UHGV virus genome: UHGV-0168042
Length of the DNA stretch: 64,000 nt
Source of the DNA: a virus
Reading direction: 5' to 3' (one strand)
The notes below the pieces were generated by a model that was given only the letters and a program-made list of their open reading frames with translations, did no database searches and was not told the DNA's origin. The first letter of the stretch is position 1. Each line of letters opens with the position of its first letter. The position numbers and the translations under genes were made by a program. Of this stretch, positions 1-55,899 are shown piece after piece.

Positions 1-1821
1 GTGCCGATTAAGGTACAAAAAGGCGGCAGCATGATGTAGCTGGTCATACTTTCCTCTGTTAAATGCCTCACGCACTTCGAGGTAAGCGTCAGCGTTGTTG
101 TAATTTTGGAAAAAACTATATGACAGCGTGACGAGCGAATGTCCTTCTCGCTGCAATGTCTGATAGAAGTTAATCAGGTCACCGTTAATATCATTAAGCA
201 GGTTGTGGCGAAATCCTGCATTCGTAAATACAGAACCGCCACCAACGAACGGTTCTATTAACCGCTTGCCGTGTGGTAGATGCTCAAGCACTGTAGGCAA
301 CTCTGAGAATTTACCGCCTACCCATTTGAAGATCGGACGCTCATATTCATCCGGAGTCCGGAGTTTTCTTGTGTAGGTAATGGTATTTATTGTTTTTGGC
401 TGTTTAGCTTCCACAGTCGCAAGAATGCGACACCCAATCCATTGCATAACAGGAACTGCCATGCTGTTGCCAATCGCTTTGTAACGCGGCCCGTCAGCAG
501 CGAGCATCGCGGCCTCTTCTTCGCTTAAATCTGGATAGTGATTGCGAAGGTATGCCAGTTCATCTGAGGAAATTGTTTTACGCTTTTCCGTAGGGATCAA
601 CGTATGCCCATCAGGAAAACCTTGCAGCCTTTCACATTCGACAGGGGTAAGACGGCGGACAGCTACTTCTGCGTTTCTTACTTCATAGCAAACGGCTGTT
701 GGATTTTGAGCCATTAGAGATGGTGAAGTATTCTTAGTTGCAGCATGTTGTGTACCGCTCATACGCTCAGGAAAAGCTAATGTAACAAGATGCTCATGGC
801 TTTCTTGCTCACGCGCCCGCAATGTACCATGCCCCTCTGACCAAAAACCTGCTCCTGTGCTGCTAAAAACGGCAAGGTCAGTGGCATCTTTAAAGTCTCT
901 TGCCTTTACTGTCGATGCGGTTTCATCGTCAATATATTCCCCAAATGCCGCCATCCTGAAAGCGTTTACGGCTTTCGTCGATTTCATACCGGGGGGCATG
1001 TCAGCGTGTAGGCATGGATTTAGGCTTTCGCCACTGATTGCAGCGCCATTTGCAATAATGGCGGAAGCGATTTCCTTCTTTTTTCGGCTCGGCGCAATAT
1101 TCCGGCGCACGCCTTCGAACTCAAAAAGTATCGTTGCGGGATCGAGGTCTGTTCGAGCACTTGCGACAACAAACACGCGTCGGCGTCGTTGCGCCACTCC
1201 GAAGTATTGGGCATCAAGGATTCTCCAGGCCACTTTTCGCTGCGGTCCATAAATACAACCACACTGCGGCCACTTTGGAGCATGGCAACTGGTTTTGACA
1301 TCCCACCGCCAGAACGCGTTACTTTTTCGCGATTCAGGTCGAGCACCTGGTTCGAATGGCGCATCTTCTCCAGCCAATCCGGCAAGGAAACATCCGAAGG
1401 CGTTATCTGCCGATGACAAGACTCCTGGGACATTTTCCCAGACGATAACGGCTGGTTTGAGAAATGACTCAGCCCGTTTGTCGTCAATTGCATTTGCAAG
1501 CTCCACATACTTTAAAGTTAGCGCGCCACGCTCATCATCAAGCCCACCACGTAATCCAGCGATACTGAATGCCTGACAAGGTGTTCCCCCGACGAGCACA
1601 TCAGGGGATTCGATTTCCCCAGCCAGGACTTTTTTGGCAAGTTTTGTCATATCGCCAAGGTTGGCGACATGGGGCCAGCGGTGCGCAAGAACGGCAGATG
1701 GAAAAGGCTCGATTTCAGCAAACCACGCCGGACGCATACCCAACGGTTCCCAGGCAATGCTCGCTGCTTCAATTCCACTGCAAACTGAACCATATCTAAG
1801 GTTAACGTTCTGCTTCACCAC
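1..1821 (-). CDS. dmt: Fused DNA methyltransferase: N-terminal C5-cytosine (Dcm-type) domain, C-terminal N6-adenine (Dam-type) domain; 3' end beyond window start
   Basis: Manual minus-strand translation is open from about 1821 to position 1 (not in ORF track because it runs off the edge). Contains GGTPCQAFS (PCQ motif) and WENVPGVL (ENV motif), then in the same frame [16 protein letters not shown] and [10 protein letters not shown] typical of Dam N-termini. GGAGG lies 6 nt upstream of GTG at 1819-1821. Confidence 0.8.
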
Positions 1822-2707
1822 CAACGGCCTCCACTAGCGAAGTGAACATCGCGGATAATTCAGCAGTAAACAGGATAAAGTCAGCGTCAAATCGTTGCGC
1901 AACATCCTCTCGATCAATATCGTCGTTCTGGTCGTACAATTCGTCGCTGAACGACAAAGCCTTGATACTCATATCGTCATTCAGTCTGAAAAATGCACGG
2001 TCTTGCCAGTTAACCGCAACTGTGGTTGCAACCTTACCAGCTTCTATATGACTCATGATCTCGTCGGATAGCAGGTCCACTTTTTTGCAGCGGACCGCGC
2101 CGCCATCATCAAGCAATGCTTTTAAGGTCGCTTCCTCACCGGCACGGAAACCGTTCGGGAAGCCATTTTTAATCCAGCCAGTGATGGTCAGTTCTAATGG
2201 GTCTTTCGGAGAGAAGGGGACAACGGGCAAGCTGCCAAGCGATTTCCGTAACAAAGCCAGCTGATCCTCTGCTTTTTTAGCACTGCTGGCCTCGACAAAA
2301 ACCAGATGATTGCTTCGGTCTATCAGGATTTTAGCTACTGATTTTCTCGTGAAAGCGCGAGGAAGAAGAGAGTGAAGCACTTCATCCTTCAGCGAATCTT
2401 TTTCGGTCTTCTTCAGCTTTCTGTCTTGCTCTTCTTCAAGTTTCAGGATTTTTTTCTGTAACTCTTCTTTGAGTACTTGAGAAGGTAGGATTTTTTCCTC
2501 TCGTTTATGCTGCATCAGAAGAAAACCCTGGTATTCATGGGTGAGGTTGTCGCCAAGAACGGGGGTCCAACCAGCTTTAGCCATATCCTGAGAACCGCAT
2601 GGGGTAAACACAAACTTGCTAAGGGCTGCATTTACTTCTGCAGTATCCCAGCTAACTTCGCGTGAAAGACGATAGATGAAGATATTTTTGAAAGCGACTG
2701 ATCTCAT
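1802..2707 (-). CDS. rdgC: RdgC-like recombination-associated protein
   Basis: 301 aa; N-terminus [17 protein letters not shown] resembles RdgC family; its last codons overlap the start of the methyltransferase gene (operon). Confidence 0.65.
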
Positions 2708-33335: not shown

Positions 33336-34373
33336 ATGAGTAAGAAGTCGATCGAGAAAGAGTACAAACGGTTCCTGCAAACCGCTGAACGGTGGAAAGA
33401 GCTGGTGGTCGCAAACTCTGTTTTCCATGATACCAGTTATGCTGGCGAGGAATTCCGCCATGTTGCATTAACGCATGACCAAAACATATTAGAAGAAGCT
33501 GAAAAATGTCTTGCTGAATGGAAAGCCTTCGTTGACATGTGTCGCGATGCCGACGGCAAAGCGTCGAACATTGTTGAGTCTGTATATTCTCCGATCCCAT
33601 TCATCATTGAGGACACCAATCAAAGCACGCATGTTGTTGTGCAAAGCGCTACAACAACACGTACATTTACACGTGAGCAATTGCTCAAAAAATACGACAA
33701 AATCATAAAGAAAAGCCTGAAAAATAGGGTTTTTTCTCAAATCGTAGGTGCTCTTGAAGAAGAACAGCGCTTCTTTGAAGCTGAGCCTGAAGGCGAGATC
33801 TACCGGGCGCGTAAAGAGGCATATACAGATGTTGTGCTGACAACAAACATCGAAGGCAGCAATGCCCTTTCTCGCTTTAGAGTTGGCGCACATGGCGCAT
33901 TGGTTTTCGCAAGACTACCGAAGACAACGATCCCCGTTGTCAATAATGTTGGTGAACGCCGGAGCATTACAATTTATTCTGGCGTCGAATCGGTACCTTG
34001 CAGCCTTCTCGGCGATTTTAACTTATATCGTGTTCGTGACCTGGAAAAACACCAGCCAAGCTACGTTGCGAAGTCGTACATCTTAAGGAACATCGATATT
34101 CGCAACGAAAACCTTAAGCAGAAATCCGCTAAGATGCTGGAGGATGCCGATCCGGCCATTCGCCATATCATTGAACGTAAGATTCGTACATCGCGTGAAG
34201 CAATGGCAAGGCTGGATAAAATGGATCTGGAATTGTTAGACGTAATGATGGCCTCTGGAGACGACCTGACCGGCATCAAACTGAATGAAGCGCGTAAAAA
34301 ATACGGCAAAGCAATCGAAGAACGTTACGGATACACATTCCCCCAAACGCAGCACGCCGCAAAGCTCTGGTAA
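33336..34373 (+). CDS. Hypothetical protein next to recombination site (candidate regulator; function unknown)
   Basis: 345-aa ORF; AGGAA RBS; sits between rox-like site and terminase in the position occupied by immunity genes in P1 (positional inference only). Confidence 0.45.
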   Translation: MSKKSIEKEYKRFLQTAERWKELVVANSVFHDTSYAGEEFRHVALTHDQNILEEAEKCLAEWKAFVDMCRDADGKASNIVESVYSPIPFIIEDTNQSTHVVVQSATTTRTFTREQLLKKYDKIIKKSLKNRVFSQIVGALEEEQRFFEAEPEGEIYRARKEAYTDVVLTTNIEGSNALSRFRVGAHGALVFARLPKTTIPVVNNVGERRSITIYSGVESVPCSLLGDFNLYRVRDLEKHQPSYVAKSYILRNIDIRNENLKQKSAKMLEDADPAIRHIIERKIRTSREAMARLDKMDLELLDVMMASGDDLTGIKLNEARKKYGKAIEERYGYTFPQTQHAAKLW

Positions 34374-34401: not shown

Positions 34402-35910
34402 TTATATATCCAGATCCGGCATTTCGATATCCGCCAGAACCTGATCTCGGAAAGTTGCCATTTCGGCACCAATATCTTCATTAGCAGGCACATAGTCCAC
34501 CAGCATAGTGAAGCAGTAGGTATCCCATCGGTCAGGCGATTTGATGTTTAGCTTTTGCCGCATGTGCTCTTTGCGCATCATCGCCATTTTCCCCTCTTCA
34601 TTCAGTAAAAAGGGGATTTTTGACGCTTGCTCTGCCGTTTTAGGGTCACTGTCTATCCGCATACGCCCTGACTTTATGGCATCACGCGCCATAATATTTG
34701 CGTAGGCACGCTGATTAACAAATCGCTCCCTGTCTTTGTTCGCAAACATGGGTTTTCCCCACCGAATACGTACCGGGTTCGCACCACGACGCACCAACTG
34801 CGCACACGTATCAGAACCAAAACCATCAGCATCAACCGCGATTGTTATATTCGGGTATTTTTCCGGCGTACATTCGTTATATATGAAGTCAGCAAAGGCC
34901 AATGGGTCCATAGTGCCAGGCATCTCCATTACCTTAAAGTTAACAACGCGCCGCTTATCCCTGTGACCTGATACCTTGCAGATGTTGAGGACCGACTTAT
35001 CTCGCCCATTACCAACGTCAGCCGTTGCCACCCATCCCCAGTTTTTCTCCAACAACACCTTGCGGCGAGCAGCGCGATCGCATTCATCACGACCAAGCAA
35101 ATAGCCGTTAATTTCTCGTGGGAACTGACCAAGCACCTTGACCATGTACTCAATAGAATCGCGCCCGCCATATTCCAGAAGCTTCTCCTTGATGAATTGT
35201 GGTGTGACGAACGGTGATTCTTCCGAGTTAAGAACAATTGCTGTCCAGATCCCTTTCGGGTTGCCTGGGGTTTTTGCTCGAGAATGGTGCGAATCGTAGA
35301 AATAACCACTTGGCCTTGTTGGCTGGGATAGCATCAACATCCGGTTATCTTCTTCAGTAAGAGCACCGGTCATTACGCCGATCGCCTTATCAGATATACC
35401 AGATGCTTCATCCAGAATTAGAAGCAAATGTGCCGCGTGTTCCCCCGCCAGCGCTTCTTCGTTGCCGAGTCGATAACCTTTGCAGAGAACTTCCCAAATC
35501 CCCTTACGGGAGCGCTCATAAAACATGGTGTCAGAGAGGACAAAATAGGTCTGCAACCACCCATGACGCTTAACTGCATTCGCCCAATACTGTTTAACGT
35601 ATTTGAATACGCCTGTTTTTACCTGGCCTATCTTGTTAGCAACAATGATGACACGGGCATCGGGGAACAGGATCATAAAAATCAACAGCAACATCGCGGT
35701 AAGGGACGACTTCCCCGTTCCGTGTCCGGACGTGACGGTAGTCCTACTCCCCGTTTCCTGTACGGACTGAATGATCTGCTGCTGCTGGTGGGAGGGGAAC
35801 ATCCCAAAAATATCGACAACAGCCTGGGTAAAGTTGTAGCGGTATTTGATTACCATATCGCGCCAGCGTGGATCTCTGGTGACGCATTTAACCTTGCGCC
35901 CGCCAGCCAT
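34402..35910 (-). CDS. pacB: Terminase large subunit
   Basis: 502 aa; Walker A TSGHGTGKS, Walker B LLLILDEAS; immediately downstream of the small-subunit gene. Confidence 0.8.
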   Translation of the reverse strand: MAGGRKVKCVTRDPRWRDMVIKYRYNFTQAVVDIFGMFPSHQQQQIIQSVQETGSRTTVTSGHGTGKSSLTAMLLLIFMILFPDARVIIVANKIGQVKTGVFKYVKQYWANAVKRHGWLQTYFVLSDTMFYERSRKGIWEVLCKGYRLGNEEALAGEHAAHLLLILDEASGISDKAIGVMTGALTEEDNRMLMLSQPTRPSGYFYDSHHSRAKTPGNPKGIWTAIVLNSEESPFVTPQFIKEKLLEYGGRDSIEYMVKVLGQFPREINGYLLGRDECDRAARRKVLLEKNWGWVATADVGNGRDKSVLNICKVSGHRDKRRVVNFKVMEMPGTMDPLAFADFIYNECTPEKYPNITIAVDADGFGSDTCAQLVRRGANPVRIRWGKPMFANKDRERFVNQRAYANIMARDAIKSGRMRIDSDPKTAEQASKIPFLLNEEGKMAMMRKEHMRQKLNIKSPDRWDTYCFTMLVDYVPANEDIGAEMATFRDQVLADIEMPDLDI

Positions 35911-37274
35911 TAATCATCCTCCGGCGGTTCTATCGCGATATCATCATCTCCGGCGTCATACCCTGCATCAGATGCATCATAATCACCGTAAATTTCAGCC
36001 GTTGCCGAAGGGTCAATATCCAGCTCTTCGTCGTTGGCCTCGAATTCTCCAGCTTTACGCTCGCCATTGCGGTCGTAATCTCCGCAACCCAATTCTTCAA
36101 CAATGGTTGCCACATCCGCCCGGCGCTCTGCCAGCCATAGCGGATGGTTAGCCTGAAGCGTTGCAAACTCCCTTGCCTCTTTGTCCAGCTGTTCATCATC
36201 AACATCATTGACGTCAGAAACAGGTGGTTCGAGAAGAGTGATAGCTTTCGCCGCGCGCGCCGCGAGGATAGCCGGGACGCTGACACCCTGGCGCTCGATG
36301 TATTCAGCAACACCGATATCATCCAGTTCCTCGCGCTCACGCATACGTATAGCGGCGGCGATAACTCTGGCTGCGCGTGCGTCAGCGCCAATGCGATATT
36401 CAATCTCTTTGCCACGCTGTTCGGCCTGTAGGCGTGCTAATTCGAGTTTTTCTCTGGCCTCAGCCTCTTTGAATGCTTGCTGGCGAGCGCTCTGACGAAG
36501 CTTTTCATCCCCCTGTCGCAGCTTTTGTTCGGACTGATATATAGCTGCCAACCTACTGATAAAATCATTCATGTAGTAGGCCGCGTCACTGATTAGACCG
36601 AGAAGGCGCTGCCCAGGGTGCATTCCTTCTGGCTCTTTATCGCCCAAGGTGTCTATTTCCGCCTGTAGACGTTCGGCCTCCTGATCAACAATGCTTTGAT
36701 ACTGAAGTGCGCGCTCTTGCGCCATTTGAATTGCTAACCGCAGGTGTTCTTCTGCGCCGTTCTTCATCATATCGCGAGCCACATTCGTAGTTGGCAATGT
36801 GGCACGCTGCACAGCACCGTCAGGGATCATTGCAGAAGATCCCTCAATTTTTGGGGCACTTTTATCTTCTTCGGGGATCATTTTCGCCATTTTTTCGCGC
36901 AATGATCTCCTGACGGATTCTTTTATCTCATTGTTATTATTTAAATTATTTTCATGATCCGAAGTTTTCTTTCTCGGCATACTTCGGAAAGAACCTGCGC
37001 CCTGCGAATTGTCAATTTCTGTAAATTTTGTTTTTTCTGCACCCTCTTCCTGCTTTTTTGTTGCTCTTCCTGCCCGTTTTTTTTCAGGTGATTTGGTGCT
37101 TTTTTTTGTTGTCTTTACCTGCGACCGCACCTCATTTTTTTTCATATTGAGATGCTTTCTGGCTGTATTGAAGCTAAGGCCATGCTCCTCACAGTATTCC
37201 TTTACAGTGATCCCTTTTTCTTCACGCAACGCTATAAAGCGGGCGCGGTGCTCCTCCCAATTAACCAGACTCAT
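35910..37274 (-). CDS. pacA: Terminase small subunit-like protein with N-terminal HTH and acidic C-terminus
   Basis: 454 aa; N-terminal GITVKEYCEEHGLSFNTARKHL HTH; six GATC sites cluster within about 36680-36960. Confidence 0.55.
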   Translation of the reverse strand: MSLVNWEEHRARFIALREEKGITVKEYCEEHGLSFNTARKHLNMKKNEVRSQVKTTKKSTKSPEKKRAGRATKKQEEGAEKTKFTEIDNSQGAGSFRSMPRKKTSDHENNLNNNNEIKESVRRSLREKMAKMIPEEDKSAPKIEGSSAMIPDGAVQRATLPTTNVARDMMKNGAEEHLRLAIQMAQERALQYQSIVDQEAERLQAEIDTLGDKEPEGMHPGQRLLGLISDAAYYMNDFISRLAAIYQSEQKLRQGDEKLRQSARQQAFKEAEAREKLELARLQAEQRGKEIEYRIGADARAARVIAAAIRMREREELDDIGVAEYIERQGVSVPAILAARAAKAITLLEPPVSDVNDVDDEQLDKEAREFATLQANHPLWLAERRADVATIVEELGCGDYDRNGERKAGEFEANDEELDIDPSATAEIYGDYDASDAGYDAGDDDIAIEPPEDD

Positions 37275-37663
37275 AAAGCAACACCACGCTTTTTAACGGC
37301 GGCATTCCACAGCTTATTCGCCATGTCCACCAGCTCTCGTTGCTCTTTTCGCGCCTGTTCGACTGATTTCCTGCTACAGTTTTTAACCAGTAAACTGCCG
37401 TATTCAGGGGTTCGCCCACGCACCTTGAACTGATATCCGTTCAGGCCATGCAACCAGTATTTTCGTGGGTAAACACGATCATCAAGCTCACAGATTGCCC
37501 TGCTTGAACGAACAAAATGACGAATGATGTTAGTTACACTTACTCGTGAAACATGGAGATGAGGGTATTTTTCTTTGGCGAGAGTGGTAATTTCAGTGAC
37601 TGTCAGATAGCAGTCAGCCCTGATCATGATATCCGCAATTTCTGCGCTGCTGATTTGTTCCAT
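37271..37663 (-). CDS. Hypothetical protein upstream of terminase (position of P1 late promoter activator Lpa)
   Basis: 130-aa ORF overlapping the terminase small-subunit start; operator-like site about 80 bp upstream; identity by position only. Confidence 0.3.
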   Translation of the reverse strand: MEQISSAEIADIMIRADCYLTVTEITTLAKEKYPHLHVSRVSVTNIIRHFVRSSRAICELDDRVYPRKYWLHGLNGYQFKVRGRTPEYGSLLVKNCSRKSVEQARKEQRELVDMANKLWNAAVKKRGVAL

Positions 37664-37770: not shown

Positions 37771-38163
37771 CTACCAGCGAGACAAACGAACAACATGTTT
37801 CACTTTTGCGATCCACTGTCCGCGATAACTATTGATTACGGCCTGTGCCAGCTTCAAATTGGCTTCAAAATCAGCCTTACTACCATCAGACTCCACCAGC
37901 ATTCCTCCATCTATTTCTGGTAAACATAGATAATCCTGCTCAACCTGCAGCGGCATTGATGGCTCTCTGAATGGCGTTACTTGCTCTGCTTTCCAGCGAA
38001 ATCTAACCCTCATCCCCCTGGTGGTCATTACTAGATAGCCTGTTATAGTGCTTTTATGGCCCACATCAGTACGCGTGGCATTGCATGACACGATCTTACA
38101 GTTAGCGATAGACCACTCCATATTGGTGGCCTGTTGAGTGCTTAATTTGGTAGTCCCGTACAT
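37771..38163 (-). CDS. Hypothetical protein
   Basis: 130-aa ORF. Confidence 0.4.
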   Translation of the reverse strand: MYGTTKLSTQQATNMEWSIANCKIVSCNATRTDVGHKSTITGYLVMTTRGMRVRFRWKAEQVTPFREPSMPLQVEQDYLCLPEIDGGMLVESDGSKADFEANLKLAQAVINSYRGQWIAKVKHVVRLSRW

Positions 38164-38738
38164 CAGAAAGCCTCCCAGTCAGTCGCGATAATATCCACAC
38201 CAGTTGCAAACCAGTCTGTCTGCGCCTGTAAATCACCATTCATCATTACCAGGCGAGGCATCACCATCACATCGCACCCTTCCACAATATCGAATGCCTC
38301 TTCCGGCAAGAATTCGAAGAGCTTTTCTTTGCTGCCAATGCTGCCACGGAACATCGATATATAGCTCCCTTTAGGCCATGATGTCCGCCGGGCATCAAGC
38401 CCTTTCATCATCCAGTAAAAAGCCGAGGAAAAAGGGATATTCTTTTTGCCAATGATTACATTATTCGCTTCTGTGTACTTCAGGAACTTAACTAACCTTA
38501 CCATTGACTCGGATAACGCAACGTATGGCTCATGATTGATTGCTGACACGCTTACACCGTGCAAATCCACGCTTACCACTGTCATATCACCGCTCTGTGC
38601 GGTTTCGATATTGACGCCTTTGCGAACTAATGAGGCGTAAAGTTCCTCTCGCTTTTTGGTCCAGCGTTCCCGCTTCCCTATGAAGTCACTCAAAATGAGA
38701 TCTTCTTCTGCATATGCGTTATCGTTCGCCATTAACAT
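38163..38738 (-). CDS. Hypothetical protein
   Basis: 191-aa ORF overlapping the downstream gene by 1 nt. Confidence 0.4.
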   Translation of the reverse strand: MLMANDNAYAEEDLILSDFIGKRERWTKKREELYASLVRKGVNIETAQSGDMTVVSVDLHGVSVSAINHEPYVALSESMVRLVKFLKYTEANNVIIGKKNIPFSSAFYWMMKGLDARRTSWPKGSYISMFRGSIGSKEKLFEFLPEEAFDIVEGCDVMVMPRLVMMNGDLQAQTDWFATGVDIIATDWEAF

Positions 38739-54736: not shown

Positions 54737-55699
54737 TCATCCCCTAAATCCCGCAGGGATTGACCAATCCTCCCGGTCAAATTCAGACCGATAGCCACGC
54801 TGTTTCATCAGGTCAAAGGCTTCACCAATGGTTACACACCCCTGGGAGCCAGAATAATCCATTGAGAAATCCAGGGCACTGGATTGTTTAGGCTTATTCA
54901 CTGCGGTAGCGGCACTACGTATCCATGCAAATTTTTTTGCCAGCTTTTCAGCGGTACGATACAGAGCCTGCCGTTTTGCGTGCCCCTCGTCTGAACGACG
55001 CTTTGCAGCTCTCGCTTTTGCCGCCGCCAGGCAGTGGTTGGTATGTTCTTCACTGATTACTGGTTTTTTATCCAGCCCCCCATTATCCGCTTGAGAACTA
55101 TTTGCTGGTGAAGCCTTTGGCTGAACCGCGCATGATCTTTCTCTTCTTTTGGCTATAGAGTGACTCTTATTTTCTATTGGCTGTTCATTTTGAACATGGG
55201 GGGACTTGTTCAATTTGAACAGGGGGTTCCCAGTTTCAAAAAAATAACGAACCTTTGAAATCAACTGCTTAACCAGTTTTGTGGCGTTGGCAAATTTGAT
55301 GCCCTGCTTACCCCCTATCTCCATTGCTACATGAATAAAGTGGAGAAATTGTGTCGTAAACCGATATACGTTACACACCTGGGCATTGTTATTCGCTACC
55401 TGATGTTGCTTAACAAGCATTCCGCACTTCGTCGCTTCAGCAAATGCCCGGCGCACAGTAGAAATACTGCGTCCTGTAATCTCGGACATATCAGCATATG
55501 AGCGACGGATCATGTATTCATCGGTAGACCCTGCCAGGTTGGCGAACTCGGCAATAATGGCGCTATGTGAAGGGGAAAGAAGACCGCTATGACGAGCAAA
55601 AAAACTCAACTGATGACCTTTGATTTTTTTGTGGTATTCAGTGTTGTTTTTATACTCAGAAGTGTTGAAAGTTACTGAAACTGAATTTAAAATACTCAC
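54737..55699 (-). CDS. HTH-domain protein, possible replication/regulatory protein
   Basis: 320 aa, GTG start; N-terminal third AT-rich with HTH-like ...MSEITGRSISTVRRAFAEATKCGML; inverted repeats upstream. Confidence 0.4.
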   Translation of the reverse strand: MSILNSVSVTFNTSEYKNNTEYHKKIKGHQLSFFARHSGLLSPSHSAIIAEFANLAGSTDEYMIRRSYADMSEITGRSISTVRRAFAEATKCGMLVKQHQVANNNAQVCNVYRFTTQFLHFIHVAMEIGGKQGIKFANATKLVKQLISKVRYFFETGNPLFKLNKSPHVQNEQPIENKSHSIAKRRERSCAVQPKASPANSSQADNGGLDKKPVISEEHTNHCLAAAKARAAKRRSDEGHAKRQALYRTAEKLAKKFAWIRSAATAVNKPKQSSALDFSMDYSGSQGCVTIGEAFDLMKQRGYRSEFDREDWSIPAGFRG

Positions 55700-55796: not shown

Positions 55797-55899
55797 CAGT
55801 CGCTACCGGAGCAGTGACCGCGATCCTACTCGATCCCATCCACCAGGATCAACAGTGTATATAAATACACTATGTTAGAAATTTAACTTAACAAGGCGA

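Follow-up and report, generated by a model that had tools for sequence, protein, structure and literature searches.

A probable P1-type packaging site inside the small-terminase gene of a D6-like phage-plasmid

The packaging initiation (pac) site of phage P1 lies inside the pacA gene, where 161-162 bp hold seven TGATCA/G hexamers that carry Dam methylation sites (PMC10028697). Synonymous recoding of these hexamers reduced phage titre about 9-fold (PMC10028697), and the requirement of the site for Dam methylation makes dmt essential in Dam- hosts (PMC12707154). The GATC sequences of P1 pacA start at gene nt 195, 202, 214 and 229 and again at nt 325, 337 and 348, giving an array at nt 195-351. 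Annotation of the P1 record places both an IHF site and the points of cleavage in the interval that separates the hexamer sets. Phage D6, whose prophage is maintained as a plasmid, is distantly related to P1. The DNA considered here is a 64,000-nt stretch of the virus genome UHGV-0168042 (the window), which belongs to a D6-like, P1-related phage-plasmid and contains, within its own pacA, a 139-bp array of five GATC-centered repeats (36823-36961). The array probably serves as the pac site of this phage-plasmid, of the P1 type with a lineage-specific word and layout, and the probability of this reading is put at roughly three in four.

The gene that holds the array, pacA (small terminase, pacase A; 35910-37274, minus strand, 1365 nt, 454 aa), shares 98.5% nucleotide identity with pacA of Escherichia phage D6. 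The encoded protein matches the terminase profile PHROG 1711 (E=4.6e-184), its N terminus matches the small-terminase PHROGs 370 and 51, and BLASTP aligns it with P1 PacA over the full length (21% identity, E=8e-12). Taken together, the D6 identity, the profile matches, and the P1 alignment bear out the label of terminase small subunit that an earlier note on this DNA had given the gene. The N-terminal domain is kept between D6 and P1, with W6, H9, G21, T23, Y27, L33, N36, T37, and R39 invariant among nine sequences; this conserved DNA-binding region and homology over the full length place the protein in the P1-type PacA family. PacA matched no Pfam family and had no PDB relative among solved structures.

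The five-copy array and its conservation

The array occupies gene nt 314-452, in the 5' third of pacA. Its shared word is (A)ATGATCC(C), which is non-palindromic, and all five copies lie within one mismatch of ATGATCCC, the consensus in relatives. Read in gene sense, the copies are oriented reverse, reverse, forward, reverse, forward. The hexamers in the window are TGATCC (three copies), TGATCT, and AGATCC, and the successive GATCs are spaced by 52, 28, 38, and 13 nt (gaps between them of 48, 24, 34, and 9 bp). The window contains 56 matches to ATGATCCC at one mismatch or fewer, five of them within 131 bp here; the second-tightest independent group of five takes up 604 bp. There is some circularity in this count, since the cluster itself supplied the word. 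Repeats 1 and 5 and repeats 2 and 3 share a dyad centre near gene nt 383 (window position ~36892). However, the spacing of repeats 3, 4, and 5 is not kept in the more distant relative L051 (27 and 36 nt vs 38 and 13), and the dyad symmetry is therefore given little weight.

Relatives were collected by a tblastn search of PLSDB with this PacA, which returned 141 plasmids at identities from 100% to ~27%, and by scans of IMG/VR and GTDB genomes, which added 81 pacA loci. The PLSDB hosts are Escherichia, Salmonella, Shigella, Citrobacter, Pantoea, Enterobacter, Leclercia, and Serratia, all of them Enterobacterales. Within the D6 clade, the lineages L004 (CP085065), L005 (CP026808), and L006 (CP137859) are 67-75% identical to the window across pacA, and the stretch with the array, at 57-68% identity, is the least conserved part of the gene. 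All three nonetheless share with the window the GATCs at gene nt 316, 368, 396, 434, and 447, without any shift in position. When seven diverse pacA genes of the D6 clade were aligned, the same picture emerged. Only 42% of the columns in gene nt 271-480 are invariant, and the only invariant runs of at least 5 nt are ATGCCG, CGGATCA, GATCATT, AAATGATCCC, and AATGATCCC. The fifth GATC is invariant too, so that all five belong to the 26 invariant four-mers out of 207 in this interval. As a positive control for this kind of footprinting, in L086 and L093, which have 69% nucleotide identity to P1, islands of identity coincide in the same manner with the P1 hexamers and the IHF core.

The invariant runs fall on the individual repeats. 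Repeat 1 (ATGATCCG on the plus strand, CGGATCAT in gene sense) lies on the plus strand at 36954-36961 (gene nt 314-321, GATC at 36956); its CGGATCA is invariant in the seven D6-clade genes between variable flanks, and the repeat is missing in L051. Repeat 2, also on the plus strand (ATGATCTC, or GAGATCAT in gene sense; 36902-36909, gene nt 366-373, GATC at 36904), has a GATCATT that shows no variation across the D6 clade and L051; in L004, L005, and L006 this copy reads ATGATCCC. Repeat 3 is ATGATCCC in gene sense on the minus strand (36874-36881, gene nt 394-401, GATC at 36876), and its AAATGATCCC is invariant in the D6 clade and L051. With repeat 4 (AAGATCCC on the plus strand, GGGATCTT in gene sense; plus strand, 36836-36843, gene nt 432-439, GATC at 36838), the invariance in the D6 clade covers the GATC, and the word becomes ATGATCCC in L004 and ATGATCTC in L005 and L006. 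Repeat 5 again reads ATGATCCC in gene sense (minus strand, 36823-36830, gene nt 445-452, GATC at 36825), and its AATGATCCC is invariant in the D6 clade and L051.

Two further GATC sequences are found in pacA, at 36683 and at 37209. The earlier note had described a cluster of six sites over about 280 bp, mostly of the form TGATC(A/C/T), and had taken these for all the GATCs of the gene. GATC is indeed present at six such positions (36683, 36825, 36838, 36876, 36904, and 36956), and in five of the six, one of the two strands reads TGATCN, the exception being 36838 (AGATCC/GGATCT). The site at 37209 is a seventh, which the note had missed. The clustering is present as described, but its unit is five sites over 139 bp and not six over 280 bp. 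The sixth site (TGATCA; 36683-36686, gene nt 589) probably lies outside the element: L004, L005, L006, and L044-L048 all lack it, and its alignment columns vary. Since it has been lost in divergent lineages of the D6 clade, it is left out of the element. The seventh site (GTGATCCC on the plus strand, GGGATCAC in gene sense; plus strand, 37207-37214, gene nt 61-68) differs from the repeat word by a single mismatch and is of uncertain role. The D6 clade keeps its GATC (nt 63), which L051 and P1 lack.

Nowhere else in the window do four or five GATCs lie as close together as in the array (36825-36959, a span of 135 bp), and inclusion of 36683 makes it the tightest group of six as well. The same cluster is the densest at four, five, and six sites in the complete D6 genome (91,159 bp), where neither GATC nor the repeat word forms a second cluster comparable to it.

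Arrays of this kind are found across the family. Every PacA clade recovered has 3-9 GATCs in gene nt 140-480, as exemplified by Serratia (nt 199-255 and 338-375) and by Citrobacter/Leclercia (nt 175-192 and 318-354). In these clades, as well as in Pantoea and L051, the array sits in the same place in pacA, is based on GATC, keeps an upstream set, and has a bipartite look like that of P1; the D6 clade is without the upstream set. A search of the D6 clade for a cryptic upstream set, using ATGATCCC at two mismatches or fewer, gave nothing at nt 69-313, and the only nearby match was the GTGATCCC at nt 61-68. Positionally, then, the array is equivalent to the P1 pac array.

One lineage has features of both designs. 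L051, whose PacA is 55% identical to that of the window, has GATC at nt 157, 169, and 181 and at nt 380, 397, 408, 435, and 471. Its word is of the D6 type (GGGATCAT/ATGATCCC) and its layout is of the P1-like two-part kind, so that L051 bridges the two. Its repeats 2 and 3 are spaced by 28 bp, as they are in the D6 clade, and the IHF-like sequence described below has the same 29-nt offset in both. This intermediate lineage comprises L051 (IMG/VR 3300009011_000012) and L053 (3300025735_000041).

The most regular pac-like array of the family is of the Pantoea type (L010, L017-L019, L062-L079), with six GATCs at an exact 12-bp period over nt 154-214, followed by others at nt 237, 363, and 379. 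The sites at 12-bp period encode repeated (S/G/N)-D-H-x tetrapeptides.

Between repeats 1 and 2 lies an IHF-like sequence, TAACAATGAGATA (36924-36936, minus strand, gene nt 339-351). It has the same position in all D6-clade genes, keeps its 29-nt offset to repeat 2 in L051, and resembles the annotated P1 IHF site AAACAAAGAGTTA and the divergent P1-like forms AAACAAAAAGATA and AAACAGAAAGATA. These attributes make it a suggestive, putative IHF site, weak on its own. The half of the array nearer the start of pacA lies in an AT-rich trough with 35% G+C, compared with 50-60% in the 3' two-thirds of the gene.

In one genome (IMG 2537562191), two contigs break inside the array, L054 ending at pacA nt 329 and L043 starting at nt 320. 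It is the only genome with contigs breaking there. The contigs overlap by 10 nt just 3' of repeat 1, at a polymorphic AT-rich patch, and the break was rejected as a physical DNA end; it is probably an assembly artefact.

Competing explanations

The array could instead be a regulatory element that responds to Dam and SeqA or to PacA itself, for example in autoregulation of pacA-pacB, as an internal promoter, or in late timing, with the real pac site located elsewhere. P1-type elements have GATC clusters in Dam-sensitive promoters and in the plasmid origin, so regulation through such clusters has precedents in this group, and the departure of the D6 layout from the bipartite pac of P1 also fits this explanation. 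Several findings speak for packaging instead. A scan of 36600-37300 found no sigma-70-like promoter in or near the array, and the array occupies the position that corresponds to the mapped P1 pac in a homologous gene. L051 ties the D6 word to a P1-like bipartite layout, and the D6 genome offers no second cluster of comparable density. A regulatory role in place of a packaging role is considered unlikely.

A second explanation is that the conserved words reflect coding constraint on PacA, in the form of repeated M-I-P, D-H, or G-S peptides, and not a cis-acting DNA element. Repeats 3 and 5 do encode M-I-P in every D6-clade gene and in L051, and the GATC at 37209 falls within conserved G-I-T codons of the N-terminal DNA-binding domain, where coding constraint suffices as an explanation. 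The array itself behaves differently. Every codon phase is represented among its five GATCs (GAT-CAT, AGA-TCA or GGA-TCT, ATG-ATC), as are both orientations, and the encoded residues vary while the nucleotides stay: repeat 2 encodes RS or GS with GATCAT kept, and repeat 4 encodes GSS, GSL, or RSS with GATC kept. Even in the M-I-P copies, the residue before ATG-ATC-CCN varies among K, E, Q, and A, yet the base before ATG is always A, and ATC is the sole Ile codon used, with ATT and ATA absent. In PacA, the array corresponds to a low-complexity, indel-rich, poorly conserved linker that joins the conserved N-terminal domain to a C-terminal half that is likewise conserved. Given the use of three codon phases and the change of residues with nucleotides kept, constraint on the array, as judged from these alignments, acts on DNA and not on protein, the M-I-P copies excepted. 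Coding constraint as the whole explanation is thus very unlikely.

A chance cluster without function is a negligible prospect, since the five sites are invariant in seven relatives in which ~58% of columns are not and in which just 26 of 207 four-mers are, and a GATC array recurs in every PacA clade, even though the window-wide scan statistics are unremarkable (P=0.23-0.53).

A number of points count against assignment of the array as a P1-type pac site. The first is that density alone does not single it out. The window holds 230 GATCs in 64 kb, and significance was assessed by uniform placement and by first-order Markov simulation: window-wide, five sites in 135 bp or less arise in 23% of uniform placements and in 28% of Markov simulations, and six sites in 277 bp or less in 42-53% of simulations. 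Within pacA alone (seven sites, 1365 nt), the values are P=0.0065 for five in 135 bp and P=0.0087 for six in 277 bp, which hold only if the test is restricted beforehand to pacA. The window-wide result is the reason that clustering was dropped as primary evidence; a single sequence is insufficient, and the case is comparative. Second, the layout departs from that of P1, with one repeat, the IHF-like sequence, and four repeats over 139 bp in the window against four repeats, ~90 bp, and three repeats in P1. Third, TAACAATGAGATA matches the IHF consensus WATCAANNNNTTR at 11 of 13 positions, with two mismatches among the nine specified bases, and does so in AT-rich DNA. Fourth, the site at nt 368 is missing in L029 and that at nt 396 in L049; such natural variants missing single repeats indicate that no single copy is indispensable. 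Fifth, for the M-I-P repeats 3 and 5, a contribution of the protein cannot be fully separated from the constraint on DNA. Finally, neither GenBank record of D6 annotates a pac site. Full-text literature searches likewise gave no description of a D6 pac site, though an earlier mention may exist.

A P1-type pac site is still the favored reading of the array. The suggestion of the earlier note that such a site lies here gains support from the five sites fixed in a diverged D6 clade, from an array position that is the same in all PacA clades examined, and from the status of the P1 array as an experimentally defined pac. The likeness to P1 that the note had drawn needs correction in its details: the word is ATGATCC(C) and not TGATCA/G, and the layout is not 4+3.

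Proposed mechanism and genomic setting

By analogy with P1, we infer PacA binding, the position of cleavage, the role of IHF, methylation dependence, and the direction of packaging. The PacA/PacB pacase would bind the repeats through the conserved N-terminal helix-turn-helix of PacA, with TGATC as the common core. A host bending protein, IHF or HU, would help to fold the site as PacB joins. If the cut is made downstream of the IHF-like site and midway between the outer repeats as in P1, it would fall near the middle of the array, at about gene nt 355-385 (window ~36890-36920). Headful packaging would then run from pacA through pacB and c1 to rox, presumably, as we take the direction toward pacB, c1, and rox to be in P1. 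Full methylation of the GATCs would license cutting and would tie packaging to the late, methylase-rich phase. A Dam site is present in each repeat, and cleavage is therefore probably gated, as in P1, by the state of methylation that host Dam or the Dam-class domain of the phage Dmt imposes.

A Dam-class methylase is encoded by the phage-plasmid. At the start of the window is dmt of the P1 type (1-1830, minus strand, with its 3' part beyond the window start), in which a C5-cytosine methylase is fused to a Dam-class adenine methylase in a single open frame. Its domains are PF00145 (E=2e-37), followed by the D12/Dam-class N6-adenine domain PF02086 (E=4e-21), which is truncated by the window start. 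The earlier note's claim that the phage encodes a Dam-like domain of its own is thereby confirmed. The window dmt has 95.7% nucleotide identity with P1 dmt. Reference D6 has two separate methylase genes at this place (D6_63, adenine; D6_64, cytosine), where the window has the P1-type fused gene, an arrangement that suggests exchange of a module between the lineages of P1 and D6.

The genes around pacA follow the order lpa-pacA-pacB-c1-recombination site, the same as in P1. The large-terminase gene pacB (pacase B; 34402-35910, minus strand) is identified by the D6 annotation and a weak Terminase_6N match, and its product is the presumed nuclease/ATPase partner of PacA. The flanking genes lpa (37271-37663) and c1 (33336-34373) also keep the order found in D6 and P1.

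The lysine-rich linker of PacA (window 37000-37150, codons ~42-92) is encoded by A-runs of 6-8 in gene sense. The gene is frameshifted and split in L013 (NZ_CP069647) and is annotated with a late start in L012 (CP057755); the homopolymer runs may favor slippage or sequencing error.

Two other regions of the window deserve mention. In the product of a 191-aa open reading frame (38163-38738, minus strand), residues 103-190 match a Tad2-like domain (Thoeris anti-defence 2; Pfam, E=1.1e-9), and the D6 counterpart of this frame, orf6, is annotated as hypothetical. At 55822-55868, three GATCs within 29 bp (GATCC, GATCC, GATCA) are followed directly by a perfect 18-bp palindrome, AGTGTATATAAATACACT. 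This trio is intergenic, upstream of a repL homologue (54737-55699, minus strand), and may be part of a Dam-sensitive control region for lytic replication.

Comparison with known packaging sites

D6-like phage-plasmids occur widely in E. coli, Shigella, and Salmonella, at times with resistance genes on board. With a defined pac site, the starting point of headful packaging could be predicted, and with it the host or plasmid DNA that is liable to be transduced. Such a site would also provide a compact packaging signal for D6-based phagemids, which may be orthogonal to the widely used P1 system. The result is useful for annotation and phagemid design. It extends the P1 paradigm without a new principle and is unsurprising to a specialist.

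The array shares with the P1 pac its place in the 5' third of a homologous pacA, in a segment that encodes a linker after the N-terminal DNA-binding domain in both. In each case several conserved short repeats are built around a GATC Dam site, with the core TGATC common to all clades, an IHF-like sequence lies within the array, and the phage encodes a Dam-class methylase. The differences concern the word, the number of copies, and the arrangement. The word of P1 is TGATCA/G, whereas that of the D6 clade is ATGATCC(C), oriented and present in both directions; there are seven copies in P1 and five in the window, and the array starts at gene nt 195 in P1 and at nt 314 in the window. The window array has neither the TGATCA/G word nor the two sets (of four and three) that flank a ~90-bp spacer with the cleavage site. 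PacA differs as well, being 57 residues longer than its P1 counterpart at 21% identity.

These differences raise a more specific proposal, namely that the D6 lineage re-specified its pacase to recognize a non-palindromic, orientation-dependent ATGATCCC in a compact, asymmetric 1+4 array, with loss of the upstream set that all other PacA clades keep. This proposal is tentative and on balance somewhat doubtful. If it is correct, D6-type and P1-type phage-plasmids in shared hosts would be orthogonal in packaging, and the 139-bp fragment would be a P1-independent packaging signal for phagemids that is still gated by Dam. Independently of this proposal, a defined pac site would make P1, Pantoea, Serratia, L051, and D6 a natural series for the co-evolution of the small-terminase word and the site layout with Dam gating kept.

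Location of the recognition site of the small terminase inside or next to its own gene is a feature of other headful phages, including P22, SPP1, and Sf6. The likeness of these systems to the window is that of a pac site embedded in the small-terminase gene. To our knowledge, their pac sites are not repeats of Dam sites and are not gated by adenine methylation, and their small terminases are unrelated in sequence to PacA, for which the Pfam and PDB searches gave no match. Among described systems, the P1 pac, a GATC-based array in the 5' part of a homologous pacA, is among the closest to the array of the D6 clade.

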